From positions 1 through 32,000 of the forward strand of contig NZ_AUBP01000029.1 of the NCBI RefSeq assembly GCF_000429305.1: a DNA stretch of 32,000 nucleotides, read 5' to 3'. Below the pieces are notes generated by a model, which ran no database searches, was not told the DNA's origin, and was given only the letters and a program-made list of their open reading frames with translations. Origin of the DNA: Desulfovibrio inopinatus DSM 10711 (lineage in GTDB: Bacteria; Desulfobacterota; Desulfovibrionia; Desulfovibrionales; Desulfovibrionaceae). Below, one piece after another: positions 5,137-25,621 of the stretch; position 1 is the first letter of the stretch, and each line of letters begins with the position of its first letter. A program made the translations under genes and the position numbers.

Positions 5137-6039
5137 ATGAAACAACTCAATAACGACGAAATCCGCGATGCAGTACGTAACCACTATGGCAAGACAGCAG
5201 AGGGCTGCTGTGGGGGGCCGGTCCCGAAAGACGCCGAAGCCTGTTGCGTAGCAGATGCCGAGGCAGAGGTGGTCGACGAAAACGCTTGTGGTTGCGGGGC
5301 CACACCATCAAGTGACATCAGCAGCGCCCAAGGGGGGTGCTGCAGCGGACCGGCGCTATCGCCAGATAAAACATCAAAAGCACTTGGCTATTCGTCAGAC
5401 GAGCTGGCATCCCTGCCAGAAGGCGCAAACCTCGGTCTTGGTTGCGGTAATCCTCAAGCCATTGCCTCAATTAAACAGGGCGAGACGGTTCTCGATCTTG
5501 GAAGCGGTGCAGGAATGGACTGTTTTCTGGCAGCAAAGACCACTGGCGCTAGGGGGCTGGTGATCGGGGTGGACATGACACCCGAAATGATTGCCAAGGC
5601 CAAGTTAAATGCCGAAAAAACCGGCGTAAAAAATGTGGAGTTCCGCCTTGGTGAAATCGAGAACCTTCCTGTGGCGGATAACAATGTGGATGTCATCATC
5701 TCGAATTGCGTAATCAACCTGTCGCCTGAAAAGTGGAAGGTTTACTCGGAGGCATTTCGTGTCTTGAAACCAGGCGGTCGTATCGCAGTTTCCGACATTG
5801 TTCTCACGGCGGCGTTGCCGGAAGAACTTCAAAACGACTTGTCCCTCTACACAGGTTGCATGGCCGGTGCCAGTTCGCTTCCGGATATTGAATCCTATCT
5901 ATCCGAGGCGGGGTTCGGCGATATCCGCATTTCGCCCAAGGATGAAAGCCGTGAGTTTATACGCGAATGGGTGCCCGGCAGCAAAACTGCGGATTATGTT
6001 GTCTCAGCGACAATTGAGGCAATTAAACCCAGGGCATAA
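5137..6039 (+). CDS. arsM: Arsenite S-adenosylmethionine methyltransferase (ArsM family)
   Basis: ATG at 5137 follows AAAGGAG (5124-5130). The SAM-binding motif VLDLGSGAGMDCF is present. Positions equivalent to the three conserved As(III)-binding cysteines are present (LGCGNP, SNCVINL, YTGCMAGA). The N-terminal region has additional CC pairs (GCCGG, ACCVAD, CGCG, GCCSG). Confidence 0.85.
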   Translation: MKQLNNDEIRDAVRNHYGKTAEGCCGGPVPKDAEACCVADAEAEVVDENACGCGATPSSDISSAQGGCCSGPALSPDKTSKALGYSSDELASLPEGANLGLGCGNPQAIASIKQGETVLDLGSGAGMDCFLAAKTTGARGLVIGVDMTPEMIAKAKLNAEKTGVKNVEFRLGEIENLPVADNNVDVIISNCVINLSPEKWKVYSEAFRVLKPGGRIAVSDIVLTAALPEELQNDLSLYTGCMAGASSLPDIESYLSEAGFGDIRISPKDESREFIREWVPGSKTADYVVSATIEAIKPRA

Positions 6040-10295: not shown

Positions 10296-11325
10296 GCTTT
10301 TCTTCCAATGCTTTCGTTCTATTCGTTTTAGAACACGTTTTTCATGTAAGGGCGTTCACCAGATGGGGTTCCCGCCTTCGCGGCGGATGACGATTTGCAA
10401 CAGAACATGATCGAGTGCAGCCATCGACCGAGAGATAAAATTTACACTAACACGATATTCGAGATGCATTTCACCTGACAAACACTTCTACACCCTGGCC
10501 TAACATACCAAGATATAACATGATAAAATATAAAAAGTGTAAAGATTACATAAGGACCATTACGCGGCAGGAACATTATACAAGAAATAGCGCGGACTTT
10601 CCCATAGGCTGGGCCTATTGATCGAAACAAACGGCTTTTCGTGCAACATGTAATACGATTAAAGCAGAAAGTGTTATTTGTTCAGACTGATCTCTAAACC
10701 GCTTTCATGATGATTAAGACAACAGGTTGCTACACCCGGCAAAGGATCAGCCCGAACGTCCACACGATACGTCAAGCCGGAAATACTGACAACGCGAAAA
10801 AACGTCTTCTAGCAATCCCCTTCCTTCTGTCTCGATGTTAACCCCATAATTCTCTGACATTGGCTCATTTATTTAATCTTAATCATAATGTAACTTCCAC
10901 TAAAATCATTTGGAGACCATGGACCGACAAAATCTGGTGGAATCTTCTGGTTCAAATTAGGCCAGCTCTCTTTCCACCATATTTCTAACGTCCTAGAGAA
11001 ATAGTGGATTTAATCACTCTCCATAGAAAAATGCTTCTAGGAACGTTCTTTTGTCCAAGCATGAATGTTTTATCGTATTATGATCTTTTAAATAGCTGCA
11101 TAAATGTTTCAGTAGCCCTCAACTGTCGCCGTATTTTTTTGGGTAAAAAATCTGCATACGTTACCGTCCACCATGTGACGTGTTCATAATCATTAAATGT
11201 AAGTAATTTCGTTAATATAATAATATACGTGCATCAAACATAAATCTTAACCGCAAAATATACATGATTTATATCTATAAATGAGATGTCATGAATTGTC
11301 CTTGCAAAGTACAAAAGAGATAGAT

Positions 11326-11958
11326 ATGTCAGCAGAAGAATTTCAGCCTGAAGAAGTAAAAGAAGTATGGAAACATACTTGGCAAAAACTCCATCGACGT
11401 AATATTGCCTATACTCGATGTGTACACAATGCCCTGCTACCTCCTTTTTCTGATGGATTCATCAAATTTCTTTATAGTGTTCCGCTATCGATTTTTGTAA
11501 CCGTCTTTCATTTCTTCACCCCACAATCAACAATGACTTGGGGGGTGTTGTTCACGTTATGTGCAGTTTTTGCAGTCCCTCTTCTTGTTCTTCAAACGAA
11601 ACGTTCTTGTCCGGCAGATTGGGTTTTTTCAGGCGTTAATTGTTATTTCGTCATCGTCGCGTTTGTTTTCTGGTTGGGCCCATATTGGCTCAATCATTTC
11701 TTTGAGCAGACTCAGGTAACTGGAATGTTGTGTGTCATATTTATTGCTTCTGTCTTTGCAACAGCACAATATAGTATCAAGGGCTGGTTCATGACGTATT
11801 CGCAGTCAATACCGATTTCCAGAATAATACTTCTTCCTGCTGTCTGCCTAGTCTCCATTTCATTGAGCACATTGCCGTTTAAACAGAGAATCATAACGGA
11901 ATTTATTCCATTTACATTGCTATTCTGGGCTGATTGGCGTAGTCGAACTTCGATATAA
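11326..11958 (+). CDS. Hypothetical integral membrane protein (about 6 TM)
   Basis: Hydrophobic segments include LSIFVTVFHFF, WGVLFTLCAVFAVPLLVL, NCYFVIVAFVFWLGPYW, MLCVIFIASVFATA, ILLPAVCLVSISL and FIPFTLLFWADW. The start is ambiguous between 11281 and 11326. The gene is AT-rich relative to the neighbouring operon. Confidence 0.55.
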   Translation: MSAEEFQPEEVKEVWKHTWQKLHRRNIAYTRCVHNALLPPFSDGFIKFLYSVPLSIFVTVFHFFTPQSTMTWGVLFTLCAVFAVPLLVLQTKRSCPADWVFSGVNCYFVIVAFVFWLGPYWLNHFFEQTQVTGMLCVIFIASVFATAQYSIKGWFMTYSQSIPISRIILLPAVCLVSISLSTLPFKQRIITEFIPFTLLFWADWRSRTSI

Positions 11959-11988
11959 ACGAAACGCAAAGATGGGAAGCGAATATCT

Positions 11989-12621
11989 ATGGTTCGGAAC
12001 CGAAAGCTTGGTTTGAGTTCTCTCAAAATAGTTTTGTTTTTAATGTGGCTGCTCTGGAGCGGTGTGGCTGTTGCCGGTCAAGAAGCAGAACAACAACAGT
12101 CGAAAGCAACGGATAATACCCAGTTCGCTTCACAAACCGAAGAACACGTCCCCAACCGATACGGCATGGCGCTGAGCTACGGTTCGGCTTTCAATTCTTC
12201 AGAACCATTGTATTTCGGAATGGGAACTGTATTCGCGACGTTCGATTATGAAAACATCTGGCATCATCCGGCACCCGATGGATTGCGCTTTAAAGTAGAA
12301 GCGAGCGCGGGCGGTGCAGACAAGGGCTTTCTCGCTTCCTTGTCCATGTTTGCTCAATATTTCCCCCCGTTTTTTCAATCAGATTCGGTCATGCCCTATG
12401 CTGAATTGGGTATTGGTGGCATTTACACCGATTTTCAACTGCACAACCAAGGCCTCAAAGTAAACTTTTGTCCCCAAGTGAGCATTGGGTCAGACTTTGA
12501 AACACAATCGGGACATCGATTTTTTGGAGCCATACGATTGCAACACATTTCTAATGCCAATCTTCACCCGCAGAACCGAGGCATTAATTCGACCGTTTTT
12601 CTTATAGGGATGTATTTTTAA
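11989..12621 (+). CDS. PagL-like acyloxyacyl hydrolase / lipid A 3-O-deacylase family outer-membrane protein
   Basis: The signal peptide is MVRNRKLGLSSLKIVLFLMWLLWSGVAVAG. The pattern alternates like a beta-barrel. The C-terminal catalytic-type motif is RLQHISNA (H-x-S-N), ending with an aromatic ...IGMYF. Confidence 0.7.
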   Translation: MVRNRKLGLSSLKIVLFLMWLLWSGVAVAGQEAEQQQSKATDNTQFASQTEEHVPNRYGMALSYGSAFNSSEPLYFGMGTVFATFDYENIWHHPAPDGLRFKVEASAGGADKGFLASLSMFAQYFPPFFQSDSVMPYAELGIGGIYTDFQLHNQGLKVNFCPQVSIGSDFETQSGHRFFGAIRLQHISNANLHPQNRGINSTVFLIGMYF

Positions 12622-13786
12622 GAACTTCCCCGGTTGCTTTTTCCCAATTACAGATTTTTCCCATGCCATTGATCGGCAATGTGCGTCCACTTGCAATATA
12701 TCGTGGCATTTGCTCCGGCTTGAGAATTTTTGCCAAGTCCTGTCGCAAGCGGTTGGTATCGGTTGGACTGAGACTGCTCCCATGAGCTGGGACAACAAAC
12801 GCTTTGAGGCGCTCGGAGCCGGAACTGTCGAGACGGACAGTACACAGTTTTACGAGTGGATGCTCAGCAATGATGCTCGCAATGTGCTCCGGATAGACGT
12901 TGATACCAGCGACTTGAACAGCTTTGTCTTTTCGTCCTAAAGGCAAAAAGCGACGAGAATCTTTCCACTGCACGTCATCAGGGAAAGGAAGTCGCTGTAT
13001 ACCTTGACCGGGTACATTACGAATGAGTCCAAATACATTTTCAGGATCACGTTGCCAATGGGGCATAAGATCAAATGGCTCATCGGGATGTGATCGCATT
13101 CCTAAAGCGCCGGTCTCAGATGAACCGAAGACTTCTCTCATGTGATGGAGCCCTGCGGCCTCAAGATCATAAATAACGTCTGCGGGACAGGGGCCGGTCG
13201 ACGTTATCCCCGTCACAGAGTCAGGAAAGCGGCGGCCAATACGCGCCACAGCCTTCCAAAATAAGGGAAAACCAACAACAACATCTCCTGGCCGTAATAT
13301 CTCAAAAAAATCGGTTGTAGGCACAGGAGCAAGGCATCGCGTTCCAATAGCGAGTTCTTGAGGGAGGACGAGTGCAAACATGAATCCGTAAAGATGGTAG
13401 CGTGGAACAACGGCCACGACGTTTTTGACGCCGGGGAACAACGGAATAAGCTGACGGACTTCCTGCGAAATCGCCTGTAAAGAATGATCAACCGCGACAG
13501 GTGTTCCCGTACTGCCCGATGTCACAAAACGAATGCCTACCGGATGAGCGGACAACGCCTGAACGATACATTCCGCCATCGCGTCGACTCCACCACATCG
13601 ATGCAGCTCTGCTTGCGCTTCGGTATTGAGCCGAAAAAAAGTTGCCATATCGTCAAGCAAGAGTCGCCATACGTTCATGCTCGGTTCTATTGAGGAAGCA
13701 TTCTCATCAAGACTGTACTTTATTCGAATGGTGTCCTCTATGAGAGCAATGACATGTTTTTTTTCAAATCGAAACGCGCCTGTCAT
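12602..13786 (-). CDS. ANL-superfamily AMP-dependent ligase (ApeH-like starter-activating enzyme)
   Basis: Motifs are TSGSTGTP (A3), GSSETG (A5) and GRKDKAVQVAGINVYP (A8). An ATGA overlap joins it to the upstream gene at 13783-13786. Confidence 0.8.
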   Translation of the reverse strand: MTGAFRFEKKHVIALIEDTIRIKYSLDENASSIEPSMNVWRLLLDDMATFFRLNTEAQAELHRCGGVDAMAECIVQALSAHPVGIRFVTSGSTGTPVAVDHSLQAISQEVRQLIPLFPGVKNVVAVVPRYHLYGFMFALVLPQELAIGTRCLAPVPTTDFFEILRPGDVVVGFPLFWKAVARIGRRFPDSVTGITSTGPCPADVIYDLEAAGLHHMREVFGSSETGALGMRSHPDEPFDLMPHWQRDPENVFGLIRNVPGQGIQRLPFPDDVQWKDSRRFLPLGRKDKAVQVAGINVYPEHIASIIAEHPLVKLCTVRLDSSGSERLKAFVVPAHGSSLSPTDTNRLRQDLAKILKPEQMPRYIASGRTLPINGMGKICNWEKATGEVLKNTSL

Positions 13787-14733
13787 ATTGATTTTCTTAC
13801 GGATTGAGGCAAGGAGCGAGCTCGCCAGCAGCCGTACCCGCCAAGCTGGTCTTCACACACGAAACGAGTTTGCCGCATATTGCCATCGATGTTGGGAACG
13901 GACTGTCCTTGGAGTGCCAGCGCAACAAGAATGAGATCGAAACCGACGGCTGTTGGTGACGTGCCGAGGCAAAAGCCGTTCGATTCTGTTGCTTGAGCTG
14001 AAAAAAAGATTGTATTGACGTCGTCGTCACATGTCGGAGAAGCTCCATTGCCGCAATCGATTTGGTCAATCAGGCAATATCCGGGGACGTTGCCTTCAGG
14101 AACCAGACAGAAAAACGATGCCGTATCGGCAAGCGGACCGCGAAAACGTTGTATAGCTGGAGCCGCGTTTTGTTCCTGTTCAAAACGATCAGCGATAACC
14201 GATAACAGTGGCGCGTACTCATCGACGGCTCCGAGAAGAACTCGATCAACGAGTCCGGACGCCAACCAATCATGGGCCACGAGGAGACCAGCAGCCATAG
14301 ATGTCTCAAATTGACAAAGCGTAATGCATGGCCCGTCGAGGTTACATTGTCTGGCCAGACCTGCGGCCGGCATGTTGTGAACCGATTGGGAAAACGCCAA
14401 TGGGGAAGCAAGGTCGGGGCCATACTCAATCATCGAATCCATCATGGCGAATGTGGCATGGAGTGGGCCGTATCCTGTTGTCATGACAAGTCCAGTTCTC
14501 GCGGAAACGTCTTCACCTGCATCTCGTATTGCTTGTTGAGCAGCCCACAAAGCAAGCTGTGAGAAATGATCCATACGCCGTAGATCGCGAGGCGATGCAA
14601 TCGTCGTTAAAATCGAGGTGTCCGCGACAGCAGGTTCTTGGATCGGGGTATCCGCTCCAGCAGCTTGGCACAAAGAAGCTGAATCTGTACCAAACCACCC
14701 CATAACGCCAAGACCGGTAATAACCATATTCAT
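13783..14733 (-). CDS. Ketosynthase-like partner lacking the catalytic Cys (chain-length-factor-like, ApeC-like)
   Basis: The start MNMVITGLG at 14733 is ATGA-coupled to the KS stop. The active-site stretch GPCITLCQFETSM aligns with the neighbouring KS's GPCQTVVNACASG, placing Glu where the Cys should be. It is only 316 aa and has no HxTGT/GH motifs. Confidence 0.8.
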   Translation of the reverse strand: MNMVITGLGVMGWFGTDSASLCQAAGADTPIQEPAVADTSILTTIASPRDLRRMDHFSQLALWAAQQAIRDAGEDVSARTGLVMTTGYGPLHATFAMMDSMIEYGPDLASPLAFSQSVHNMPAAGLARQCNLDGPCITLCQFETSMAAGLLVAHDWLASGLVDRVLLGAVDEYAPLLSVIADRFEQEQNAAPAIQRFRGPLADTASFFCLVPEGNVPGYCLIDQIDCGNGASPTCDDDVNTIFFSAQATESNGFCLGTSPTAVGFDLILVALALQGQSVPNIDGNMRQTRFVCEDQLGGYGCWRARSLPQSVRKSI

Positions 14734-15935
14734 ATTCCATCTCCCAAAGACAGAAACAGGACGGAATTGACACCTCCAAAAGCAAGCGATGTGGATATAG
14801 CCCAATTTCCGGTAATGGATGTCGTGTGCGTCACGGGATGGACTGGTAATGCGGGATCGGGTGTTGAGCACCGCGTGTTTCCGGGAAGAGCGCCCTGCTC
14901 CAAACTGACAACAGTGAAAATCGCTTCTATGGCACCGGCGGCTCCAAGTGTGTGTCCAGTATAGCCTTTGGTGGCACAAAGAGGAACGTCAGGACACAGA
15001 TTTCCATAGACACACGATTCGACGGCGTCATTATCTTTGGTCCCTGTCCCATGCGTATTGATAAATGCGGCACTGGTCACTTTGAGATCGGCCGCGTCTG
15101 CCGCCTGTGTGAGAGCGGCAGCCAGCCCCCTCCCTTCGGGGTGGGGCTTTGTCGGATGATATGCATCGCCGGCCGTGGCATATGCCTGTACCATCGCCCG
15201 AGCCTGTGCGCCTCGCATTGCTGCGTGCTGTTCAGATTCGAGAACAACCATACCAGCCCCTTCTCCGAGATTGAGCCCCTGTCGGTCTGCATCAAACGGT
15301 TTTACAGGGTTCTCATCCACAATGAGCAACCGGCCAAAGCCGGTCATGGTGAATTCGGAGAGTTCGTCGGTCCCTCCGGCAAGAACCACATCACACAATC
15401 CTTGACGAATCCATGCAGCCCCCAAACCAATGGCATCGGTGCCAGAGGCACACGCGTTGACAACAGTCTGGCAAGGACCGTGCACATCAAAATGTCGCGC
15501 GAGCCATAACGCGGGATTGACGGCAAGCCAGCGCTGAACAGCAAACAGTTCGGGATCGCGCCCGGCGCGTTGATTTCGATAAAACGACATGAGATTAACG
15601 CTCGCTCCAACCGATGTCCCGATACTGACTCCAATACGTCGACCTGCAAGTTCCTCTGGATGAAAGCCGGCATTTGTCAGGGCTTCCCAAGCTGAGTGCT
15701 TTGCGAAAAGCGTTGAGAGTGAGCTGTACCGCATGTCGGAATCGGTCACGAATGAAGCGCGAACGGATTCGGGAACGGCAAATACCGGGCTTGGCCGAGT
15801 GGGACCGCCGGGAACGGACAGACTGTGTGGAAGATTTGGCTCACCAAAAAGCTTTTTCACGCATGCGTTAAGATCAAATCCTTGAGCGCATAGACACCCC
15901 ATGCCCGTTATGACAGGAATGGGCTGTGGACTCAT
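14730..15935 (-). CDS. Beta-ketoacyl-ACP synthase (KS-C, ApeO-like)
   Basis: Motifs VVNACASGTDAIG (Cys), INTHGTGT (His) and KGYTGHTLGAAG (His). The start is ATGA-coupled to the ACP stop at 15932-15935. Confidence 0.9.
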   Translation of the reverse strand: MSPQPIPVITGMGCLCAQGFDLNACVKKLFGEPNLPHSLSVPGGPTRPSPVFAVPESVRASFVTDSDMRYSSLSTLFAKHSAWEALTNAGFHPEELAGRRIGVSIGTSVGASVNLMSFYRNQRAGRDPELFAVQRWLAVNPALWLARHFDVHGPCQTVVNACASGTDAIGLGAAWIRQGLCDVVLAGGTDELSEFTMTGFGRLLIVDENPVKPFDADRQGLNLGEGAGMVVLESEQHAAMRGAQARAMVQAYATAGDAYHPTKPHPEGRGLAAALTQAADAADLKVTSAAFINTHGTGTKDNDAVESCVYGNLCPDVPLCATKGYTGHTLGAAGAIEAIFTVVSLEQGALPGNTRCSTPDPALPVHPVTHTTSITGNWAISTSLAFGGVNSVLFLSLGDGI

Positions 15936-16183
15936 GACGTGCGTTCCTCGATAAAACGAGCGAGGGCCGAAATCGATGCGAACGCTTCTTTTCCCTCTTC
16001 CATATTCTTGATTTCACAGTGGAATTCTCGCTGCACCAATACAACGACCTCAACGGCATCTAAAGAATCCAATCCAAGGCCTTCGCCAAAAAGCGGGCTG
16101 TCGTCATCAATGTCAGCAACCGAAACTCCAGTGAGATGGAGTCCGGAAATAAGCATTTCTTTAAGCCGTGTCTTTATGTCCAT
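15932..16183 (-). CDS. Acyl carrier protein (ACP-2)
   Basis: MDIKTRLKEMLISGLHL...GEGLGLDSLDAVEVVVLVQREF carries the DSLD phosphopantetheine site. The start is uncertain (16183, 16195 or 16198); all options overlap the end of the upstream gene. Confidence 0.8.
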   Translation of the reverse strand: MDIKTRLKEMLISGLHLTGVSVADIDDDSPLFGEGLGLDSLDAVEVVVLVQREFHCEIKNMEEGKEAFASISALARFIEERTS

Positions 16184-17840
16184 CGCGTTTCTCATCATTC
16201 GACCAGATGTCGACAAAATTAAAGTATTGAAAAGGATTGGCCGTCGCATACACCTCAATGCATGAAGCGAACCGTTGCACATACGGCACATAGGGTGCTG
16301 CTTCTCGGCCAAGACCGGATGGGACTTCGATGATATCGCCAATCCACAGTCGCGAGGCTTCAGGACCGGTGCGTGCCGAAAACAAAACAATCACAGGAGC
16401 GTTCATCGCCGAAGCCAAGGAAAATGCACTATAAGGATACTGAACAGGCTCTCCGAACAAATCGACTGACACGACGTTGCGCTCATTGCCGAGAACACGG
16501 TCTGCCGTCATGGCAACAATGGCACCGTGACGAAGCTCTTCCATGATTTCAAACACTCCACCCAGAGTCCCCAGAGGATCGATGAAACGAAAAGGAGCTT
16601 TCTTCCCTGTATGTTCGAAATACTGTCGATCCACGTCCCCAGCATCACGATGAAGCAAAATAGCCGTGCGCGTATTCATGAGCTCGAACCCGGACATCGC
16701 CGTCTGCCAGCAACCGACATGGGCCGTAAGAACAAGGAGCCCCCGCCCACGAGCCAAAAGAGTACGCATGGTTGATTCAACGTTGTCATCAAGCTCAACG
16801 TGATGGCGCCCTTGTATTCCCATGGCAGCCCGATCCACGAGGATCTTTCCGAACTCGAAATGGAGTCGAAAAGCGTAGACAAAAAGTGCTATACGGGAAT
16901 GATTGGAAAAACGCCGTACAAGATAGGCCTTTGATCGAGCGCGAATTGATGGCCAGAGCGTGTAGTACGCAGTGATGACAGCCAAAACGACATAAGTTGG
17001 TCGAACACCAAAAAGACGGATAACCGCATAGAAAAAAAGATGTTGCAGTCGCGATCCCAGACTCTTGCTTGACCAACGAGAAGGACGACGCGTGGTGGGC
17101 GTAACCTTTTCTTGCCTCCTCCTCAAAAGACCAGGAAGCCGGAGGATAGCCCAGACCGTTAATCGGGTATTGAGCCAAGAGATTCGGGCATTATCCCAGA
17201 AGGCTTTAAAATGGGATATGCGTTGGTCCGGTTCAGGGTAAAAGACCGGGATGTCGATTTCTTCAATATGAAACCCTGCCCAAGTGGCTTTGACCAAAAT
17301 TTCGATTTCAAAAGAATAACGATTCTCCGTGCTTTGTATCTTCTCGAATACGGTAAGGGGATATGCGCGAAATCCGCTTTGCATATCCGAAATCGTATGC
17401 AAAGTCTGAATGCGGTACCAAAGATTGGAAAACCAACGACCGAATCGAGAGGAACCAGGAATGTTCTTGGCGTTAAAATTTCTGCTCCCGACAATGATAC
17501 TCTCCGGATGTTGCTCCATGGCGGAGATGAAACGAGGGATATCCTCGGGGAAATGCTGACCATCGGCATCTATTGTCAGGATATGCGTCATCCCTCGCTG
17601 TCGTGCTCTTTTGGCAGCCGTTTTCATCGCGGCCCCTTTTCCTTGATTGACCGGATGGCGAATAACATCGATTGTATCGCTCAAATCATTGGCAGACACG
17701 GGAATATCGCTGCCGTCGTCCACAACGAGCACATGTGGGTGTTGGGCTTTGATGCGTCTGACCACGTCGGGAAGTGTCCCGGTGTGGTTATATGTCGGAA
17801 CGACGACAAGGAGCGTATTCAAGGAGAATGGCTCAGTCAT
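16161..17840 (-). CDS. Fusion protein: family-2 glycosyltransferase (N-terminal) plus LpxL/HtrB-type lipid A-biosynthesis-like acyltransferase (C-terminal); ApeJ-like
   Basis: The N-terminal part has LLVVVPTYNH...VLVVDDGSD...ILTIDADGQH (GT2 DxD). The middle has TM segments. The C-terminal half has LpxL-family architecture. It overlaps the rSAM stop by 8 nt. Confidence 0.75.
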   Translation of the reverse strand: MTEPFSLNTLLVVVPTYNHTGTLPDVVRRIKAQHPHVLVVDDGSDIPVSANDLSDTIDVIRHPVNQGKGAAMKTAAKRARQRGMTHILTIDADGQHFPEDIPRFISAMEQHPESIIVGSRNFNAKNIPGSSRFGRWFSNLWYRIQTLHTISDMQSGFRAYPLTVFEKIQSTENRYSFEIEILVKATWAGFHIEEIDIPVFYPEPDQRISHFKAFWDNARISWLNTRLTVWAILRLPGLLRRRQEKVTPTTRRPSRWSSKSLGSRLQHLFFYAVIRLFGVRPTYVVLAVITAYYTLWPSIRARSKAYLVRRFSNHSRIALFVYAFRLHFEFGKILVDRAAMGIQGRHHVELDDNVESTMRTLLARGRGLLVLTAHVGCWQTAMSGFELMNTRTAILLHRDAGDVDRQYFEHTGKKAPFRFIDPLGTLGGVFEIMEELRHGAIVAMTADRVLGNERNVVSVDLFGEPVQYPYSAFSLASAMNAPVIVLFSARTGPEASRLWIGDIIEVPSGLGREAAPYVPYVQRFASCIEVYATANPFQYFNFVDIWSNDEKRDGHKDTA

Positions 17841-19206
17841 AGGCAGTCTCCTTCACAGCTAAGGCTGTCGATTCAAATTTAATTCTCTTGTCCCACAAAA
17901 AACCGCGCATTCCGAATCGGCGCATAATCTCCAGTCTCTCTTGGCCCTCTTGTGGAGGATAGATGCGATCATGTCTTCCGGCATACGCCTTCATGAGTCG
18001 AGCATGGACGGCATTACGGTGGAGTTGCCGAGAAAAATAAAACACGGGTTCAAGGAGCGGATCGTCCCTTTCAATCATGCCTTCGTGGATAGCCAGCGTT
18101 TGAAGCGCAGTCTGCGGCAAGATGCGATACCCAAGGAATCCCAAAACCATGCTTCCCTTGAGGCGTTCTTGCAGCACAAGCCCACGTTCAATAGTCTGCG
18201 GTGTTTCTCCTGGGCCGCCATACACAATGAAAATCGATTGCGGAATACGGGCTTTGAAAAAAAATTCGTTCATTGCGAAGACCTGACTATAATCGAAGCC
18301 TTTCGCCAAAGAATGCAGTGTCTCGTCGCATGTTCCATCGACACCAATCTCAACACAACGTAATCCTGATCGGACAAGTATATCTATAGCGTCTTGTGTT
18401 ATGTTCCCAGGCCTGAAATACGCGCTCCAGTTGATACAGAGATTGCTCCGGATCAATGCTTCTGCAATTTCGAGAAATTGGTTGTGTGGATCATTGAACA
18501 CCGAATCGGTGAAAAAGTAGGTATCAATGCCGTGTTTGTTTTTGAGATACGCAATTTCATCAACAACGGCCTGAGGATCACGGAATCGAAGATTTTCTCC
18601 TTCAAGTCCTGGATAACTGCAATAGATGCAGTGAAATGGACATCCTCTCTTCGTCTGAATCCCATAGATGCCGGTTTCGGCGTAATAGGTTAATGCGAGG
18701 CTTTCATTTTCGCCTTTGCCAGGAAGAAATGGTTTTTTTAGATCAATGGCGCGACGTATAAGCCCGGTCACGCGTTGTCCTTGTTTCAGAGTGTCCAATA
18801 TGTCGACAAATGCGTCTTCGCCTTCTCCGACAACACCGCAATCGGCCCGACAATATTCAAGAATAGACTGTGGCATAAGGGAAAAGCCAGCCCCACCAAG
18901 CACGATCGGCACGCCAGACCATGCTTTGATTCGTTCAACAAGCATTCGAAGGCGATCGAGTGTCCAATGTGCTTGGGCCGTAAAGATATCGACATTATCA
19001 ATATTTCGAATACTAATGCCAACAACATCAGGAGAGAATGTACGAAGTCGGGTCTCCACTTCTTCGCCATCGCCATGATGCCAAAAATCATAGATTTCGA
19101 CCGTGTGTCCGGCACGACGTGCGCTTTGGGCAACAAGAGCAACCCCTTGAGGATAAACCGGGTAGGGGCTTGTTTCCGTATTGATGGAAAAGAGCAGGAC
19201 GTTCAT
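17833..19206 (-). CDS. B12-binding-domain radical SAM enzyme (class B rSAM)
   Basis: The N-terminal part is a Rossmann-like cobalamin-binding-type domain (VVGISIRNIDN...IVLGGAGFS). The radical SAM cluster motif is GCPFHCIYCSYP (CX3CX2C). It is ATGA-coupled at 19203-19206. Confidence 0.85.
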   Translation of the reverse strand: MNVLLFSINTETSPYPVYPQGVALVAQSARRAGHTVEIYDFWHHGDGEEVETRLRTFSPDVVGISIRNIDNVDIFTAQAHWTLDRLRMLVERIKAWSGVPIVLGGAGFSLMPQSILEYCRADCGVVGEGEDAFVDILDTLKQGQRVTGLIRRAIDLKKPFLPGKGENESLALTYYAETGIYGIQTKRGCPFHCIYCSYPGLEGENLRFRDPQAVVDEIAYLKNKHGIDTYFFTDSVFNDPHNQFLEIAEALIRSNLCINWSAYFRPGNITQDAIDILVRSGLRCVEIGVDGTCDETLHSLAKGFDYSQVFAMNEFFFKARIPQSIFIVYGGPGETPQTIERGLVLQERLKGSMVLGFLGYRILPQTALQTLAIHEGMIERDDPLLEPVFYFSRQLHRNAVHARLMKAYAGRHDRIYPPQEGQERLEIMRRFGMRGFLWDKRIKFESTALAVKETAYD

Positions 19207-19670
19207 GACATTAAAGCAAGAAGGTCATACCAACGTGTCTGAAAGTCGAGCAGAAAATCGGGCAACGTCATGACGAGTTCTCCCGAAAGATCGACGAAAA
19301 GTTGCACTGTGCAACCCGTAGCAATCAATTGATCGGACTGATTTGTCACGCGGTATTCAAAATTAAGACGGGCCGCGTCCGACCAATGCAACCGAGTCAT
19401 AACGGTAACATGGTCGCCGTAACGGAGTGGGCAAAGATAGTCGACTTCAAGTCTGCGGATAGGCACAGTGAGACCATGATTATGAAAATCAAGGTAGTTA
19501 ATGCCGAATTTGGCCCCAAATGCCTCTCTGCCTTCTTCGAAATAAACCACATAGTTGCCGTGCCACACAATACCGAGAGGATCGGCTTCATGAAATTTGA
19601 CCGGCCGTGTCATCGTCATTTCCAAAGGTGCAGGCGCATTGGGCTGTAATCGAAAATAATTTTTTTTCAT
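19203..19670 (-). CDS. 4HBT/YbgC-type hotdog thioesterase (ApeK-like)
   Basis: The start MKKNYF at 19670 is ATGA-coupled. The motif is FHEADPLGIVWHGNYVVYFEEGREAF. Confidence 0.8.
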   Translation of the reverse strand: MKKNYFRLQPNAPAPLEMTMTRPVKFHEADPLGIVWHGNYVVYFEEGREAFGAKFGINYLDFHNHGLTVPIRRLEVDYLCPLRYGDHVTVMTRLHWSDAARLNFEYRVTNQSDQLIATGCTVQLFVDLSGELVMTLPDFLLDFQTRWYDLLALMS

Positions 19671-20053
19671 AGAATTGCTGAGGTCGTAGGAGAAAATTGA
19701 ATTCGAAATGAAGATGCCAGTTCGTTCTCGACGTGCAGTGAAGCTGCCAGTTTTGTTGTGTTGCCTGTTGTCGTGCAGAGACATGCAACCTCAAAAACTT
19801 CATCAGGCAGGATCATCTTGAGATATTTACATTTTTCAAAATGAATCGAACCCGTTAAGATTTGTTGATCTATTCCGGCCGTATTGAAGACAAAGAGGAG
19901 TTGCATCATGCCGGGTAAAACCGGATACCCCGGAAAATGGCCTGCGAAAACAGGATGATCGCCATTCATGCGATAGCGTTGCCGTAGCATTCCCTCATCT
20001 CTGAAGACAGGCGTCACGGCCAAGCGCCAAACATCAAAATATTCCTGGCTCAT
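19667..20053 (-). CDS. FabZ/FabA-like hotdog dehydratase (DH-2, ApeP-like)
   Basis: The start MSQEYF at 20053 is ATGA-coupled. The motif is HPVFAGHFPGYPVLPGMMQL. Confidence 0.8.
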   Translation of the reverse strand: MSQEYFDVWRLAVTPVFRDEGMLRQRYRMNGDHPVFAGHFPGYPVLPGMMQLLFVFNTAGIDQQILTGSIHFEKCKYLKMILPDEVFEVACLCTTTGNTTKLAASLHVENELASSFRIQFSPTTSAIL

Positions 20054-20646
20054 TGTTTTTCTCCCTGTAAGGAACATGGCGAAATACGCAAAGTAAATGC
20101 ATGTTTCCCGAGCCCTTCGACGCGCATGGGGGCGTCTGGCCCTTGAGTTTCAATTCGAAGGATGGCCTCGGATTCGGCTGTGTGCCGGCATATGCATTGA
20201 ACGGTATTGTTCCGCACGGTCTCTGAGGCGCATCGACGCACGGCATCATCGAGAAACAAGCAGCGCAGAACCAAAGCAGCCGTGTCGGCAAAATCCTTTA
20301 CGCGGAGCAAACCACCGTTGCGTACTCGTAGCGTATGGGCAGTCGGGCTCACTTGGGCATCAAAGAGAGGAATGCCAAAATCTGTAAATACAGACGCTCG
20401 GAGTGCCCGGCGGTCAGCGTCGGTCTGGACCATCCCCTGCACCGCAAGAGAAGCATCCCCCAGTGTGAGAATGCCAGCATGGGATAAAGTCACATCATGA
20501 CCATTTGCCGTATCGGGAACAGCAAATGGAGGAGCGGATTGCGTCAAATCATTGCTAACAGCTGGCGGATTGGTACATGCTGCCAAGAGGTTCAACGCAA
20601 CCAGGAGGAACACCAGCCATATTCTTTTGGGTCTCTGTTTTGTCAT
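20050..20646 (-). CDS. Lipoprotein of unknown function (ApeN/DUF3261-like by position after the MMPL gene)
   Basis: The start MTKQRPKRIW at 20646 is ATGA-coupled. The lipobox is LLAAC. Family membership is not verifiable by eye. Confidence 0.65.
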   Translation of the reverse strand: MTKQRPKRIWLVFLLVALNLLAACTNPPAVSNDLTQSAPPFAVPDTANGHDVTLSHAGILTLGDASLAVQGMVQTDADRRALRASVFTDFGIPLFDAQVSPTAHTLRVRNGGLLRVKDFADTAALVLRCLFLDDAVRRCASETVRNNTVQCICRHTAESEAILRIETQGPDAPMRVEGLGKHAFTLRISPCSLQGEKQ

Positions 20647-23012
20647 GCCTGCCTCCACAATGCCGGCAAAATGACAAGAGACGCGACAAGTCCGCCGAGT
20701 GTTCCTATCAATACAGTCGTCCCGATACCCAACAGAGCAGGATGTCTACAGAAGGCAAGCGTTCCGAGTCCGATAATGGTGCTCAGACCCGAGACAATGA
20801 CAGCCTGTCGCGCTATCGGACTGATAGCTCCATCGAGTTCGCTGACCATGAAAATTCCGTAATCAACACCAAGACCAAGAATGAGTGGAACCGCCACGAT
20901 AGTATAAAGCGTTACCGGTGCGGCACTGATGGCGTGGTAACCCAAAACGGCAAGAAGACCGGCGACAACAGGAAAAAGAGCTGCTGCGGTTCTGGTAAGA
21001 TTACGAAAAAGAAGAAAGACAAAAATTGGTACAAGCACCAGAGTGAAACCAACGAACCGAACAAGGGTTTCTCCCATCAGCCTGGCCGTAGATTGGCGAA
21101 ACTGTGACAGAGAAAGAAAACGTATCCCCTCGGTCGACTCATTCGAAAAAAAGTCAGCAATTTCTGCGGTGTCCGGCACGAGAGATATGGCAGCCGTATA
21201 CGTCGGGCCTGTTTTAAAAAAGAGATCACGCAGGCCACCGGGCAACCTTTGAAGGAATTGTTCCTCTTCTTCGACTTGTGCCGGCGTAGAAATCATATGA
21301 ACGAATGGTTGAAAGGCTGTGCCGCTGAAGCCGAGTACTTGAGCCTGTGTGCTCAAATGTTTTTGAACAGATTCGTTATGTTTGATCCAGAATTGGTTCC
21401 ATCGGGTTACATTGGCCTGCATAATTTGGGATGACGGCAGTATCGATGCCAAACTGACCATTTCAGTGTCAGGAAAGCGCGCATGAAATCGATTCGCAAT
21501 ATGTTCGTTATGCTCGAGAGCCTCTTCGGCGGTTTTGCCGAGTGAGAAAATGAGAGCCATATCACGGGCTCCGCCCCAGATTTTATGAAAACGCTGTTCA
21601 TCGAGTTTGAGCTGCTGAGGAATATATCCGAGATTGCGTAAGTCACCATCTGTCTCCAGATGTGTAATAGCCAAGGCACTTGCGGCGAGACTTACGATAA
21701 AGACAGCGACAACAACGGTACGCGGTATATGAGAAGAGAAAGGAAGATGGAGAGATATTCGATGTTGTCGAATCGAAAGACGTTTTGGCAACAACAAAGG
21801 CAAAATACCAAGAGAACTTGCAAAAGCCGTAGCAAGACCGATCATCGAGAAGACCGCCAATTGACGGATACCGGGCATGTCGGAAAACGCCAGTCCAATG
21901 AACGCTGCGAGGGAAGTTAAACAGCTCATGGCGAGAGGTCGACTCAGACGCGAGAGGAGGACCGCGCCGTCGGTGCCGTGAGCATCAGCCAACGCATAAT
22001 AAACATGCAGGCCGTAATCCATGGTGATGCCAAGAATAACCGCCCCAAAGCCGACGACAATACCGGATATCGCTCCTTGAAAAACCACTGTGCCCGCCAC
22101 GGCAAAAATGAATGCTCCAGCCGGAATAAGCAAAACAAGAAGGCCAGACAGAGAGCGCAGGAAAAAGGCAGCCAACCCGATAAGCAAAATGCCGGAGATA
22201 GGCAAAACCGTACTGAGGTCTTCCCGGATTCGGTTGTCGTTGGCTTCCGTATAGCGATGCCCTGCCGTGACCATGGCGCTTATACCTGCGGGAAGTGTTT
22301 GAGCTATAACGCGCTGTACAGTTTCAAGCAGGTGTTGGGAAGCCTCAGGGTCAGTGAATGGGACGACTGTGTCGACCACAATGAGATGGTGAAGACGATC
22401 GTCAGTAATGAACCGACCGGAACGCAAATCGACGAAATCAGCAGGCATTGCAGACCGAAACTTTTTCAACAAAATCCTTCGAAGTCCCAAAGGATCTTGG
22501 CTGATCAGACGTTTTATCGGACCAGCAGGTGTGGAGAGCAAGATTCGTTTGTCTTCGGTCAGGGAATGTTCAATAGCTTCAGGCGTAAGCAGACGCGATA
22601 TGGCGGCTTCATCTTGGGCCGAGAAGAGCAAAGGAAATGAGACAAAAATATCTTGAAACATCGCCGGAGATATGTCGATAGGCGGTCCCACAAGCACATT
22701 CGGAAAAAGAGTTTTCGGCAGAGCCTGTTGCAAGGCATCGGCAGCCTGCGTCAACCGAGCAGGAGGAATCGTCTCGTCTCTTGTCAGCGTGATGAATATT
22801 TTTTTTGCAAACGGAGCTATTGTCAACAAGTCGATGTCATTGACATCGTTCTTTTCATTTTGAGGCAGCATAATGCTGATATCACGCTCAAGAGGCGTTC
22901 GGGCGACAACCAAAATAGATATCGCCAGCATGACCACACTCACAAAAAAAAGCACATATCTATAACGGCGTAGCGCTTTAAAAAAAGACGGGTTGAAAAG
23001 ACGATGCGTCAT
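20643..23012 (-). CDS. MMPL/RND-superfamily membrane transporter (ApeM-like exporter)
   Basis: It is 789 aa with two blocks of multiple TM helices separated by soluble loops, which is the typical MMPL layout. It sits directly after the LolA-like gene. Confidence 0.8.
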   Translation of the reverse strand: MTHRLFNPSFFKALRRYRYVLFFVSVVMLAISILVVARTPLERDISIMLPQNEKNDVNDIDLLTIAPFAKKIFITLTRDETIPPARLTQAADALQQALPKTLFPNVLVGPPIDISPAMFQDIFVSFPLLFSAQDEAAISRLLTPEAIEHSLTEDKRILLSTPAGPIKRLISQDPLGLRRILLKKFRSAMPADFVDLRSGRFITDDRLHHLIVVDTVVPFTDPEASQHLLETVQRVIAQTLPAGISAMVTAGHRYTEANDNRIREDLSTVLPISGILLIGLAAFFLRSLSGLLVLLIPAGAFIFAVAGTVVFQGAISGIVVGFGAVILGITMDYGLHVYYALADAHGTDGAVLLSRLSRPLAMSCLTSLAAFIGLAFSDMPGIRQLAVFSMIGLATAFASSLGILPLLLPKRLSIRQHRISLHLPFSSHIPRTVVVAVFIVSLAASALAITHLETDGDLRNLGYIPQQLKLDEQRFHKIWGGARDMALIFSLGKTAEEALEHNEHIANRFHARFPDTEMVSLASILPSSQIMQANVTRWNQFWIKHNESVQKHLSTQAQVLGFSGTAFQPFVHMISTPAQVEEEEQFLQRLPGGLRDLFFKTGPTYTAAISLVPDTAEIADFFSNESTEGIRFLSLSQFRQSTARLMGETLVRFVGFTLVLVPIFVFLLFRNLTRTAAALFPVVAGLLAVLGYHAISAAPVTLYTIVAVPLILGLGVDYGIFMVSELDGAISPIARQAVIVSGLSTIIGLGTLAFCRHPALLGIGTTVLIGTLGGLVASLVILPALWRQA

Positions 23013-23017
23013 GATAA

Positions 23018-23632
23018 TTAAAAGAGACCTTTGGAAAGCGGAGCATTGATCGTTGTTTCGTGAAAATCAATACGTGTCTCATCCCCTTCGCTTTCGTGGA
23101 TGACAATATGCTCAACAGTCATGTCTGGCTGTGTGAACTGCATGGTCATGGATGCAATGCCGGATGTTTGGGAATTGAGAGGATACAAGACGATGGCAAG
23201 TGGTTCCGAAGAGAGGACAGAAACTGTATTTTCTTTCTTCAGGGCGCTCATATCAAGCTGCATCCAGGCAAAAAGGCGTTTGGAGAGAGCACGCAAGATG
23301 GGATCGGTACAACCCGTTTGGAGGGGGGAGACTTTACTTTGGTCTGCCCCCAAACGATGACAGTTTTCCCCATCTATGACGAATCCCGCATGGAATGGTT
23401 CGAGATATTCCCAACGCAACTTGTCTGGTGAAGCAAAGACAAGTCGCCCAGATGACTTCATTGATGTTTTAAACATGGACATCGTTTTGATCTGGGTAAA
23501 CTGCGTATCAAGAGTCGATACGTTGCGCGCTTTACTCTCTATTTCCTGAAGAAGATCTGTCTCATTTTGCGCCCAAACCAAGAGGGGGCAGAATAACAAT
23601 ACGACACAAAGGGTAAGGCATCTGAAAATCAT
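23018..23632 (-). CDS. LolA-like outer-membrane lipoprotein carrier family protein (ApeL-like)
   Basis: The signal peptide is MIFRCLTLCVVLLFCPLLVWA. This is followed by ...VSTLDTQFTQIKTMSMFKTSMKSSGRLVFASPDKLRWEY, the LolA-type F.Q...... G.l....P.k.RWEy pattern. Confidence 0.75.
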   Translation of the reverse strand: MIFRCLTLCVVLLFCPLLVWAQNETDLLQEIESKARNVSTLDTQFTQIKTMSMFKTSMKSSGRLVFASPDKLRWEYLEPFHAGFVIDGENCHRLGADQSKVSPLQTGCTDPILRALSKRLFAWMQLDMSALKKENTVSVLSSEPLAIVLYPLNSQTSGIASMTMQFTQPDMTVEHIVIHESEGDETRIDFHETTINAPLSKGLF

Positions 23633-24087
23633 ACTCCCCTCCCCTGTACGTCAGCCGCCGGGGGGCTAAAGACTCGAAAGCCCCCCGAAGCAACGAGTTC
23701 CCCCTCCTCCAGAAACAGCCGGGCGTTTGCGACGTAAAACCGATCGATCTCCGTCACCGTTTCTACTTCAATACGAAGACGATCATCAGGTCCGACCTGA
23801 TTGGAGACGACAAACCGGTTGATTCCGACAAGAAATCCAGGTTGGAGGGGAAGCCCTTGTTGAAGAATACAATATCCACGCATGGCAGCATAAGCCTGGG
23901 CTGCGATTTCGACATAGGCGGCTGGATGGAGCGTGTTGCCAAGAAGAGGCACGGCTTTTTCATGCAAATCCACCGTCGCAACACCGTAGTTATCGTTGGA
24001 TTCGAGTAAAAAATCGATCAACGCCATAGGCGGCCGGTGTGGAATAAGCAAATCAGCAGCAAGTGGAAATCGAAGATCTAAAGCCAT
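23629..24087 (-). CDS. Hotdog-fold beta-hydroxyacyl-ACP dehydratase (DH-1, ApeI-like)
   Basis: The motif is LIPHRPPMALIDFLL. GAAGAGG lies upstream of the ATG. The stop is ATGA-coupled to the LolA-like gene. Confidence 0.75.
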   Translation of the reverse strand: MALDLRFPLAADLLIPHRPPMALIDFLLESNDNYGVATVDLHEKAVPLLGNTLHPAAYVEIAAQAYAAMRGYCILQQGLPLQPGFLVGINRFVVSNQVGPDDRLRIEVETVTEIDRFYVANARLFLEEGELVASGGFRVFSPPAADVQGRGV

Positions 24088-24181
24088 ACGTACCTCTTCC
24101 CGAATGAAACAGCTCGAGTCCTTATATTCCTAAACGGACAGAACAACATGCTGTCATTGACCATAACGTGGTCTATTCATT

Positions 24182-24586
24182 TTATGAATTAAGCAATTCC
24201 TCTTGAATTTGCCGGTCAAGATTCATGATCCAACCTTTATAATTCTTGTGGATTTTTCCATTACGAGCTTTCAAGTTGGTACTTGATTTATAAATGATGC
24301 TGTACTTATTTTTGTCATACTTGATATCGACAACGGCCTGATGGCTCCTGATATTGAGCGTAGCAACAATAAGCCCTTCTTTTTCGACGTACATTTTCCA
24401 ACCGAGCTTATTACAGGCTCGATGAATCGCCACCTCAATTTCATACATTCCAATATTCGTATGCGATCCTGTATCTATCGGTTGATTATTGACATTATAA
24501 ATTGGAATTGTTTTACAACCAACAATCGACAACATACCTACGATACAAATAAGAACCGTGATACGGCGTACACTCTGTAAAGTCAT
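24182..24586 (-). CDS. Small lipoprotein of unknown function, low GC
   Basis: GGAG lies 7 nt upstream of ATG 24586. The lipobox reads MTLQSVRRITVLICIVGMLSIVGC. It is flanked by the only real non-coding gaps inside the operon. Confidence 0.7.
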   Translation of the reverse strand: MTLQSVRRITVLICIVGMLSIVGCKTIPIYNVNNQPIDTGSHTNIGMYEIEVAIHRACNKLGWKMYVEKEGLIVATLNIRSHQAVVDIKYDKNKYSIIYKSSTNLKARNGKIHKNYKGWIMNLDRQIQEELLNS

Positions 24587-24759
24587 ACGAGATCTCCACA
24601 TTTTATAATTGTTTCCACAAACAACTATCTTCCTCAACCCCAAAACTTTCCCAACAATTCAGAACAAAATACATGCGTTATTACTCACAACATGATAAAA
24701 TTTAGGCTTGCAAACATGGATATACAAAAATCAGTATGGAGAACTTCATCGAACTGAGT

Positions 24760-25575
24760 CTATAGCCTCGTTGTATTTGCTCCAATACAGTAGGGTAAAG
24801 TGACTCTCTCGGAGTTCTTATATTGCTGTTGTATATCCAGGATTGCTTTTTCCATCAGTAATTTAACATGCTTTCGCATCGCTATATGGCCAAGTTCTCC
24901 AGAGAAATTGTGTGGGTACACAGGAGGGAGAGCGACCACTGTAACGGGAGTTATTCGAAGCCAAGTCGTCCCTTTGGGAAGCATCTTACCGGTGTTGTAA
25001 AAGCACAATGGTACGACCGGCCGACCTGTCTGACAGGACAAGCGAAACGCTCCGGAATGAAAGCGACCGAAATGCCCATCCGAGTGGCGCGTCCCTTCTG
25101 GGAAAAACATGATGCTCGTTTTTTGCCGAAAAAGATTTTGTATGTGTTCAAACATACCTTCTGGCGTGTACTGTTCCACATCAACATACTGAGCATTTCG
25201 CATGTAGAATCCAAAAAAAGGAATACGAAATGGCCACCCTCGAACGACAAATGCGACATCATGAATGGGAAGAGACGCCATAAAATACAGATCGGTCATG
25301 GACTGATGATTTCCCACAATAATACATGGCTGCGGGTAATCGTCCCATTTCCCTGTCTTTCTTTCTATGGGCATAAAAAGCGAAATAAAGTGAATCCATA
25401 CTCTGGCATAAAACCAGACAATACTTCGGATAGCAGACGGTGATGTTCGCTTCATGATGATTTTGTACAGGATAAAAGCAAATGGAGTGAACACGATAGC
25501 GATGCCTGTCCAAATCAACAAGAATGGAACATGAGCGATATTGAGCACAATTGTCCGTATCGTCATACCGTTCAT
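24760..25575 (-). CDS. PlsC-family (lysophospholipid) acyltransferase (ApeD-like)
   Basis: Motifs are VGNHQSMTD (HX4D) and FFPEGTRHSDG, with N-terminal TM helices. The start is ambiguous (TTG 25596, ATG 25575 or ATG 25566). Confidence 0.8.
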   Translation of the reverse strand: MNGMTIRTIVLNIAHVPFLLIWTGIAIVFTPFAFILYKIIMKRTSPSAIRSIVWFYARVWIHFISLFMPIERKTGKWDDYPQPCIIVGNHQSMTDLYFMASLPIHDVAFVVRGWPFRIPFFGFYMRNAQYVDVEQYTPEGMFEHIQNLFRQKTSIMFFPEGTRHSDGHFGRFHSGAFRLSCQTGRPVVPLCFYNTGKMLPKGTTWLRITPVTVVALPPVYPHNFSGELGHIAMRKHVKLLMEKAILDIQQQYKNSERVTLPYCIGANTTRL

Positions 25576-25621
25576 TATTTCCGTCTTTGTTCCCAAAAAT
25601 TCTTTACCTGATTATTCCAGG

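Follow-up and report, generated by a model that had tools for sequence, protein, structure and literature searches.

Aryl polyene (APE) gene clusters have been described as the most widely distributed family of biosynthetic gene clusters in bacteria. The canonical ape cluster contains no radical S-adenosylmethionine (SAM) gene (PMC8253772, with which the apeA-R record of Escherichia coli CFT073 agrees), as an earlier note on the present DNA had also stated. The locus examined here raises the question of what a cobalamin (B12)-binding radical SAM enzyme might do in the midst of such a cluster. The gene in question occupies positions 17833..19206 of a 32,000-nucleotide stretch of Desulfovibrio inopinatus DSM 10711 (contig NZ_AUBP01000029.1, positions 1 to 32,000), which we refer to as the window. 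It is an open reading frame (ORF) of 457 aa with an ATG start, at the coordinates that the earlier note had given, and it lies on the minus strand, which that note had left unstated; the features described below lie on the same strand unless a plus sign is given. We find that the gene is an integral member of an APE-type operon, in which it overlaps homologues of ApeK and ApeJ, and its product, a member of the TIGR04072 family, is predicted to be a radical SAM enzyme of class B (cobalamin-dependent).

The class assignment, already proposed in the earlier note, is borne out by profile searches and by the predicted fold. A cobalamin-binding Rossmann domain (PF02310, E 1.5e-21) covers residues 9-136 (18799..19182) and is followed by a radical SAM core (PF04055, E 7e-17) at residues 185-340 (18187..18654), the domain succession expected of class B. 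The CxxxCxxC motif for the [4Fe-4S] cluster can be read directly as CPFHCIYC (C189, C193 and C196; residues 189-196, 18619..18642), behind the N-terminal cobalamin-type domain, as had been noticed before. In the AlphaFold model, the B12 domain displays alternating beta and alpha elements with pLDDT mostly above 85, and the fold as a whole matches those of TsrM, CysS, OxsB and TokK. The best profile match is TIGR04072 (rSAM_ladder_B12), the curated NCBIfam equivalog model for "lipid biosynthesis B12-binding/radical SAM protein", which scores 534.8 bits against a cutoff of 360 bits (E 1.4e-160) and aligns residues 3-442 to positions 2-442 of the 443 in the profile. Membership in this family, which the earlier note had named and left unverified, is thereby established at the level of the profile. 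The protein is also 100% identical to an NCBI entry already named [quoted passage not shown]. What is new here is thus one more member of an already catalogued family, since the protein annotation pre-exists and the cluster type is widespread.

Within this family, found in Desulfobacterota, Bacteroidales, Verrucomicrobia and Spirochaetota, the D. inopinatus protein stands somewhat apart. A library of 1.84 billion representatives contains 691 clusters that match it at E<=1e-30, and its nearest other relative among 5.8 billion clustered proteins is only 45-47% identical. The alignment nevertheless shows that every invariant family residue has been retained despite the divergence. A motif S65-I-R67-N68-I-D70 (18997..19014), located by a phmmer alignment to 6wte, lies in the loop after strand beta3 of the B12 domain; this strand comprises residues 61-65 in the AlphaFold model, so that R67 sits two residues beyond it. 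No family member departs from S65, R67, N68 or D70 (48/48 and 30/30), and the pattern SxRNxD is thus found in all 78 sequences; the 30 sequences from the species-representative genome set all match TIGR04072 at E<=1e-20. The cysteines C189, C193 and C196 are invariant in alignment A1, where P190 and Y195 are conserved as well. We discarded as evidence the apparent invariance of the full CPFHCIYC string in a further alignment, A2: the contig scan behind it relied on peptide patterns derived from the divergent D. inopinatus protein alone and returned only relatives of <=37% identity, all with CPFHCIYC, so that the invariance is an artefact of ascertainment.

The operon that surrounds the gene extends over about 18 kb (12602..30558), and was delimited by NCBIfam scans together with tblastn searches using the Ape proteins of E. 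coli CFT073. In the direction of transcription, it encodes an ApeQ-like short-chain dehydrogenase/reductase (SDR), a ketosynthase (KS_A), a CrtI-like FAD oxidoreductase, KS_B (ApeR), an acyl carrier protein (ACP; ApeF), the ApeD acyltransferase, ApeA, an ApeP-like dehydratase, LolA (ApeL), an MMPL protein (ApeM), a lipoprotein at the ApeN position, an ApeI-like dehydratase and ApeK, then the radical SAM protein, and finally ApeJ, a second ACP (ApeE), KS_C (ApeO), a chain length factor (CLF) at the ApeC position, and an AMP-ligase (ApeH). The two ACP genes lie at 15932-16180 and 25622-25870. Homologues of ApeA, D, E, F, H, J, K, M, O, Q and R were recovered by tblastn, and the LolA- and ApeI/ApeP-type dehydratase genes by the NCBIfam family scans; the ApeN and ApeC labels follow from position and from the Pfam assignments of the syntenic genes in a related locus (L081, below), and have no tblastn matches. 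All components of the APE core as listed by Grammbitter et al. (bioRxiv 10.1101/2020.12.19.423268) are therefore represented, namely KS (ApeO/R), CLF (ApeC), ACP (ApeE/F), dehydratase (ApeI/P), ketoreductase (ApeQ) and transporter (ApeM), where ApeE, F, M, O, Q and R were matched by tblastn, and the CLF and the ApeI/ApeP-like proteins by NCBIfam and by Pfam in L081. Judging from these genes, the operon is an aryl-polyene-lipid cluster, whose product is a prediction, and the radical SAM gene is flanked within it by three KS, the CLF, two ACPs, dehydratases, a thioesterase and acyltransferases.

Both junctions of the radical SAM gene overlap, as the earlier note had read them. Its start overlaps the stop of the thioesterase gene in an ATGA (plus-strand 19203-19206, "tcat"), and its stop (plus-strand 17833-17835, "tca") lies beyond the ATG of the next gene (17838-17840, "cat"), giving an overlap of 8 nt with the family-2 glycosyltransferase (GT2)-acyltransferase gene. 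The starts of the radical SAM and ApeJ-type genes are credible because both N-termini align with homologues. From these overlaps, the gene had been called translationally locked in place. The part of this claim that stands is integral membership in the operon, with the same placement repeated in L081; the special lock does not, since the ORF coordinates reveal overlapping junctions of like kind at many positions of the operon, and the coupling therefore reflects ordinary operon membership. Recent horizontal insertion of the radical SAM gene into the operon was considered and is unsupported: its GC content of 0.47 is unremarkable and in line with its neighbours, and its placement is common to L081.

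The neighbourhoods of homologous genes link the family to lipid assembly more generally. We compared 32 loci, consisting of 28 family-level loci from a species-representative genome collection, in each of which a neighbourhood of about 10 kb was covered, and four further loci (L081-L084). KS and/or ACP genes were found in 26/32 of these (22/28 in the species-representative collection), while none of the 40-odd loci holding other, more distant B12-radical SAM families had KS or ACP genes. The earlier note had named as its refutation a best match to an unrelated family, with orthologues away from KS/ACP genes; the best match is neither BchE, HpnP nor HemN, and the co-location just described is frequent. 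Among the sampled loci, ACP genes are the most constant neighbours of the family, the ACP often being directly beside the radical SAM gene, or with no more than a KS or CrtI-like gene in between. The closest correspondence was seen in L081, on a 4.26-Mb contig, where a relative with 42% identity lies between a thioesterase and a GT2/acyltransferase as in the window, and where the gene order by Pfam labels is identical, from KS/CrtI-like/KS/ACP through ApeK, radical SAM, GT2, acyltransferase, ACP, KS and CLF to the AMP-ligase. In the Desulfuromonas-type loci L082 and L083, the orthologue precedes GT2/DUF2062 and lipid-A-type acyltransferase genes in an APE-like cluster with an aromatic ammonia-lyase, and is flanked by two further B12-domain paralogues. 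The Bacteroidales loci are arranged as SDR, KS, ACP, acyltransferase and radical SAM, and in four Syntrophaceae loci (L012, L015, L016 and L017) the order is ACP, CrtI-like, radical SAM, with the CrtI-like gene directly upstream of, and overlapping, the radical SAM gene. Verrucomicrobia and Spirochaetota are also represented among the loci with KS/ACP context.

As to the chemistry, the top characterised relatives in hidden Markov model (HMM) scores are methyltransferases (BzaD with 216 bits, the TsrM family with 120 and PhpK with 99); the scores for non-methylating enzymes are 74 (BchE), 71 (HpnJ) and 53 bits (AprD4). The closest solved structure by sequence is the tryptophan 2-C-methyltransferase TsrM (PDB 6WTE/6WTF; phmmer 92.9 bits, covering both domains), and the AlphaFold model, built with 48 homologues (pLDDT 89.7), matches it with TMq 0.80-0.83 (E 1e-27), followed by MgmA, AprD4, CysS, OxsB and TokK with TMq 0.63-0.68. 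Two residues of TsrM are instructive in this comparison: Arg69 shields the cobalt on its lower face, which stabilises cob(I)alamin and makes the Co-CH3 bond more labile, and Glu273 ligates the unique iron and thereby stops formation of the 5'-deoxyadenosyl radical (PMC8992657, PMC13331322). R67 aligns with Arg69, the residue expected of TsrM-type methylases of sp2 carbons, and this invariant Arg under the cobalt points to a putative cycling between Co(I) and CH3-Co(III). Glu273 aligns with V236, within FFTDSVFND of the radical SAM core (minus strand), and family members have V, I, L, T, N or S at this position, never Glu. A TsrM-type non-radical enzyme was therefore rejected as a class, and the TsrM family model TIGR04428 indeed gives only 119.7 bits against a cutoff of 500. 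Lacking the Glu273 equivalent, the [4Fe-4S] cluster could bind SAM, so that a 5'-deoxyadenosyl-radical route would be possible. The two proteins thus share the conserved lower-face Arg and the CxxxCxxC motif but differ in other respects: identity is only about 22%, the C-terminal region of TsrM is about 100 residues longer, and TsrM methylates an electron-rich sp2 carbon of free tryptophan, not of an acyl-ACP. BzaD, of the anaerobic dimethylbenzimidazole pathway, is the best-scoring characterised family, but its model TIGR04385 reaches 216.3 bits (residues 16-391) against a cutoff of 450, and its cobamide context differs from the lipid/polyketide context seen here, where the neighbours are ape and fatty acid synthase (FAS) genes and no bza context (bzaA/B/C/E) is present. 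BzaD is predicted to methylate the benzene carbon ortho to an O-substituent, and had not been reconstituted according to a 2026 review (PMC12931638).

The earlier note had proposed, in broad terms, C-methylation, cyclisation or cross-linking of the polyene acyl chain. We give about an even chance to the reading that the enzyme carries out cobalamin-mediated C-methylation of an ACP-bound polyene or aryl-polyene intermediate. SAM would methylate cob(I)alamin, and the resulting methylcobalamin would pass its methyl group to a carbon of the ACP-tethered intermediate, before ApeJ attaches the chain to the glycolipid anchor; the target could be an sp2 carbon, located in either the conjugated chain or the phenolic head group. 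This reading is favoured because the top HMM relatives are methyltransferases, TsrM is nearest in structure, R67 is invariant and ACP neighbours are constant. Going by their structure titles, TokK and CysS provide precedents for B12-radical SAM methylases acting on pantetheine-linked substrates.

The head group deserves separate consideration. In canonical APE pathways, the 4-hydroxyphenyl head group is 3-methylated by ApeB, a class I methyltransferase (PMC8253772), a reaction that is formally the same as that predicted for BzaD. With the E. coli CFT073 proteins as queries, neither ApeB nor ApeG had a match anywhere in the window by tblastn, and phmmer searches of the 32 radical SAM loci returned only two ApeB-like ORFs, the one in L006 weak and the one in L021 marginal. 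The idea that the radical SAM enzyme strictly replaces ApeB was nevertheless dropped, given these two ORFs and the many loci without an aryl-starter gene; the latter also imply that the head group cannot be a family-wide substrate. That the radical SAM enzyme might stand in for ApeB is retained only as a sub-hypothesis for APE-type clusters.

Several observations weigh against C-methylation of the polyene. The absence of ApeB is weak evidence for it, since ApeB is not universal in APE clusters, and L006 holds the radical SAM gene together with its weak ApeB-like gene. Many family loci have neither an AMP-ligase nor an ammonia-lyase within reach, and six of the 28 family-level loci (L003, L008, L018, L022, L027 and L028) lie outside lipid clusters altogether. 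The D. inopinatus protein is itself the most divergent of the 48 aligned members: among the 109 columns with >=90% conservation it differs at 20 (S74I, H325I and N345L, for instance), where the median among members is 3. More generally, the function of B12-radical SAM enzymes is poorly predicted by similarity, methylases being scattered across the sequence network, and the 2026 review places this family under "other or unknown transformations" (PMC12931638); other reviews regard it as a candidate cyclobutane-former (PMC9204698; PMC13459092).

The last of these views has a long history. Rattray et al. flagged B12-type SAM-radical enzymes in the lipid clusters of the anammox bacterium Kuenenia (PMC2649909), and the family has been proposed to form or rearrange cyclobutanes, although no enzyme of the family has ever been prepared in active form and no genetic system exists for anammox bacteria (PMC10139942, PMC13459092, PMC9204698). 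"Ladderane"-type clusters have since been reported repeatedly, and without explanation, in non-anammox phyla (PMC9902471, PMC11968836). The anammox "ladderane" B12-radical SAM proteins (Kuenenia stuttgartiensis kuste3608 and kuste2803) have the same two-domain architecture as the protein studied here, and both clusters are of a type II FAS/polyketide synthase-like kind with extra ketosynthases, an ACP and a phytoene-desaturase-like gene. The trio of third KS, CrtI-like gene and B12-radical SAM gene in the window is the same set as kuste3605/3606-3607-3608 (PMC4790861, PMC10139942), and the CrtI-like gene with its flanking ketosynthases mirrors kuste3605-3607, a comparison made on the published gene list. 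The differences are that the radical SAM gene of the window lies between ApeK and ApeJ in a full ape operon and not beside the desaturase as in the anammox cluster, and that the Desulfovibrio host, unlike anammox bacteria, has no reported ladderanes.

Given this background, the enzyme might instead be a non-methylating radical catalyst of C-C bond formation or rearrangement in the polyene chain (cyclisation, cross-linking or ladderane-like rings), in which a 5'-deoxyadenosyl radical would start the reaction and cobalamin would relay the radical or electrons, along the lines of OxsB, BchE or HpnJ. The naming of the family after anammox "ladderane" clusters and its proposed role as cyclobutane-forming catalyst (PMC2649909, PMC10139942, PMC13459092, PMC9204698) speak for such a role, the family-wide lack of a Glu273 equivalent would structurally allow radical initiation, and a conjugated polyene together with the CrtI-like desaturase of the operon would supply a cyclisable substrate. 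We nonetheless consider it unlikely: the family is widespread in organisms not known as ladderane makers, BchE, HpnJ and AprD4 score two to four times below the methylases, OxsB is a poorer structural match than TsrM, and the Arg beneath the cobalt, TsrM-like and invariant, agrees with Co(I) chemistry. Lipid clusters syntenic with those of Kuenenia occur in Desulfotalea psychrophila, which makes acyclic polyunsaturated hydrocarbons and no ladderanes (PMC2649909); this would weigh against ring formation if the organism carries a TIGR04072 gene.

Two other roles were weighed against C-methylation of the chain, and to both we assign a low probability. The enzyme could C-methylate the amino-sugar/glycerolipid part built by ApeJ and ApeD, in the manner of GenK, GenD1 and MoeK5 on sugars, an idea suggested by the 8-nt overlap with the ApeJ start and by the fact that the genes most often found immediately next to family members are those for GT2/DUF2062 or a lipid-A-type acyltransferase (L001, L002 and L081-L084, and the Bacteroidales loci L006, L007, L010, L014, L019, L020 and L025). 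The canonical APE anchor is N-acetylgalactosamine (GalNAc)-phosphate-glycerol (bioRxiv 10.1101/2020.12.19.423268), and sugar C-methylases are known among B12-radical SAM enzymes (PMC12931638). Such a target is very unlikely in our estimation, considering that no GT2 occurs within about 10 kb of the radical SAM gene in the Syntrophaceae loci, that glycosyltransferase and anchor genes are absent from the Kuenenia kuste3603-3608 cluster (PMC4790861), and that the family is more universally accompanied by ACP and KS genes. Slighter still is the chance of an O2-independent redox tailoring of the BchE/AprD4 kind (desaturation, dehydration, hydroxylation or ketone formation on the acyl chain or the aromatic starter), by which a strict anaerobe would compensate for having no O2-dependent enzymes. 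D. inopinatus is an anaerobic sulfate reducer, the BchE, HpnJ and AprD4 models give significant though weak matches, and AprD4 (6fd2) is the third-ranked structural match, all of which would agree with this role; those profile matches are, however, far weaker than the methylase ones, two FabZ/ApeI/ApeP-type dehydratases, a ketoreductase and the CrtI-like desaturase are already available in the operon for steps of this sort, and AprD4 uses no cobalamin, whereas the cobalamin-domain motif is invariant here.

Extended from this operon to the family, C-methylation would make TIGR04072 enzymes O2-independent cobalamin C-methylases (or other polyene-tailoring catalysts) that act on ACP-bound conjugated chains, a generalisation that we put forward tentatively and regard as doubtful. 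Were it true, anaerobes would gain a hitherto undescribed class of aryl-polyene outer-membrane lipids, methyl-branched or modified in some other way, the anammox "ladderane" enzyme would be part of a general polyene-tailoring family and not a dedicated cyclobutane-former, and a cultivable Desulfovibrio, in place of anammox enrichments that have no genetic system, could serve to solve the chemistry. The reaction of this family has been debated since 2009, and the family is the leading candidate for one step of ladderane lipid biosynthesis. The present locus offers an unambiguous member in an interpretable aryl-polyene operon of a pure-culture sulfate reducer, in an arrangement conserved in other Desulfobacterota, and thus a simpler system, with a product predicted to be coloured and tractable by mass spectrometry, in which the chemistry of the family could be found. 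Any answer would add a cobalamin/radical SAM tailoring step to APE clusters, and would either support or undercut the ladderane hypothesis. Literature searches, including searches for TIGR04072 and for aryl polyene together with Desulfovibrio, returned no paper that connects aryl polyenes to a radical SAM enzyme of the cobalamin type. The finding by itself is a confirmation at the level of annotation and not new chemistry; its value lies in the operon context.

The genes around the radical SAM gene are readily assigned. Immediately upstream, at 19203..19784, lies a YbgC/4HBT-type thioesterase (TIGR00051, E 2.6e-18), the ApeK homologue, to which E. coli ApeK aligns by tblastn at 19245-19643 with 32% identity; translation of this gene probably begins at the ATG at 19670, a start that would overlap with the stop of the dehydratase gene in front of it. 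The downstream gene at 16161..17840 was identified by tblastn as the ApeJ homologue (29% identity over 574 columns, E 1e-51) and is a fusion whose N-terminal half matches GT2 families and whose C-terminal half, a lipid-A-type acyltransferase, matches LPLAT families. With 559 aa, this single fusion is like E. coli ApeJ (558 aa); in L081-L083, GT2+DUF2062 (~390-410 aa) and Lip_A_acyltrans (~320-335 aa) are two separate genes, which in L081 lie at 11493-13709. The CrtI/phytoene-desaturase-like FAD oxidoreductase is found at 27102..28586 (TIGR02734 crtI_fam, E 8.7e-23). Compared with the canonical ape clusters of E. coli CFT073 and Xenorhabdus doucetiae, the window shares the export (LolA, MMPL) and anchoring (ApeD, ApeJ) genes, lacks ApeB and ApeG, has gained the third KS, the CrtI-like oxidoreductase and the B12-radical SAM gene, and differs in gene order around ApeI/J/K.

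Some of the related loci hold additional genes of the same superfamily. A degenerate B12-domain paralogue of about 420 aa precedes the TIGR04072 gene in L082 (genes within 8742-12819), L083 (within 8723-12861) and L001 (within 8730-11350), and these paralogues, from Desulfuromonas-type and Verrucomicrobia loci, have best NCBIfam scores of only 44-55 bits. A third, HpnJ/BchE-like B12-radical SAM gene (480-490 aa) follows the TIGR04072 gene in L082 and L083, and L083 additionally carries a radical SAM/SPASM gene at 750-1826; the cluster in the window has a single radical SAM gene. The homologues in the six loci outside lipid clusters have 33-37% identity and all match TIGR04072 at E<=1e-20, and they may constitute a functionally distinct subgroup. 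In three of these loci (L008, L022 and L027), the same ORF of about 220 aa, PhoU-like as judged by eye, comes after the radical SAM gene.

With respect to regulation, neither a cobalamin riboswitch nor any other controlling RNA element was found, the sole Rfam match in the window being a transfer RNA (tRNA), and promoter predictions did not exceed the shuffled expectation (18 found against 23.8 expected). All that the promoter and terminator scans gave was a plausible -35/-10 pair ahead of the operon's first gene, at 30716-30744 (-), which was not used as evidence. The tRNA gene, tRNA-Ser(tga) at 31275-31364 (-), lies about 700 nt upstream of this first gene (SDR start 30558) and is adjoined by a low-GC intergenic stretch (GC 0.39). 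The ape cluster of E. coli CFT073 (L085) also lies in an island, near an integrase, and with this parallel the tRNA and the low GC hint that the present cluster may be a mobile island.

At the other end of the operon, a PagL-like gene (PF09411, lipid A 3-O-deacylase family) at 11989-12621 (+) converges on the AMP-ligase gene, with a 3' overlap of 20 nt. PagL-family genes are also found inside L082 (17624-18181) and L084 (9417-10004, directly upstream of the radical SAM gene), and the gene appears to be a conserved accessory of such Desulfobacterota clusters, with no counterpart in canonical ape clusters. Beyond the 3' end of the operon follow a peptidase-U32-family gene at 8655-10295 (-), a PocR-sensor PAS histidine kinase at 1136-3949 (+), and an extracytoplasmic function (ECF) sigma factor and then a Methyltransf_31 class I methyltransferase at 4487-6039 (+). 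The peptidase U32 family includes O2-independent hydroxylases such as UbiU/UbiV, and PocR domains are associated with B12/propanediol regulation.

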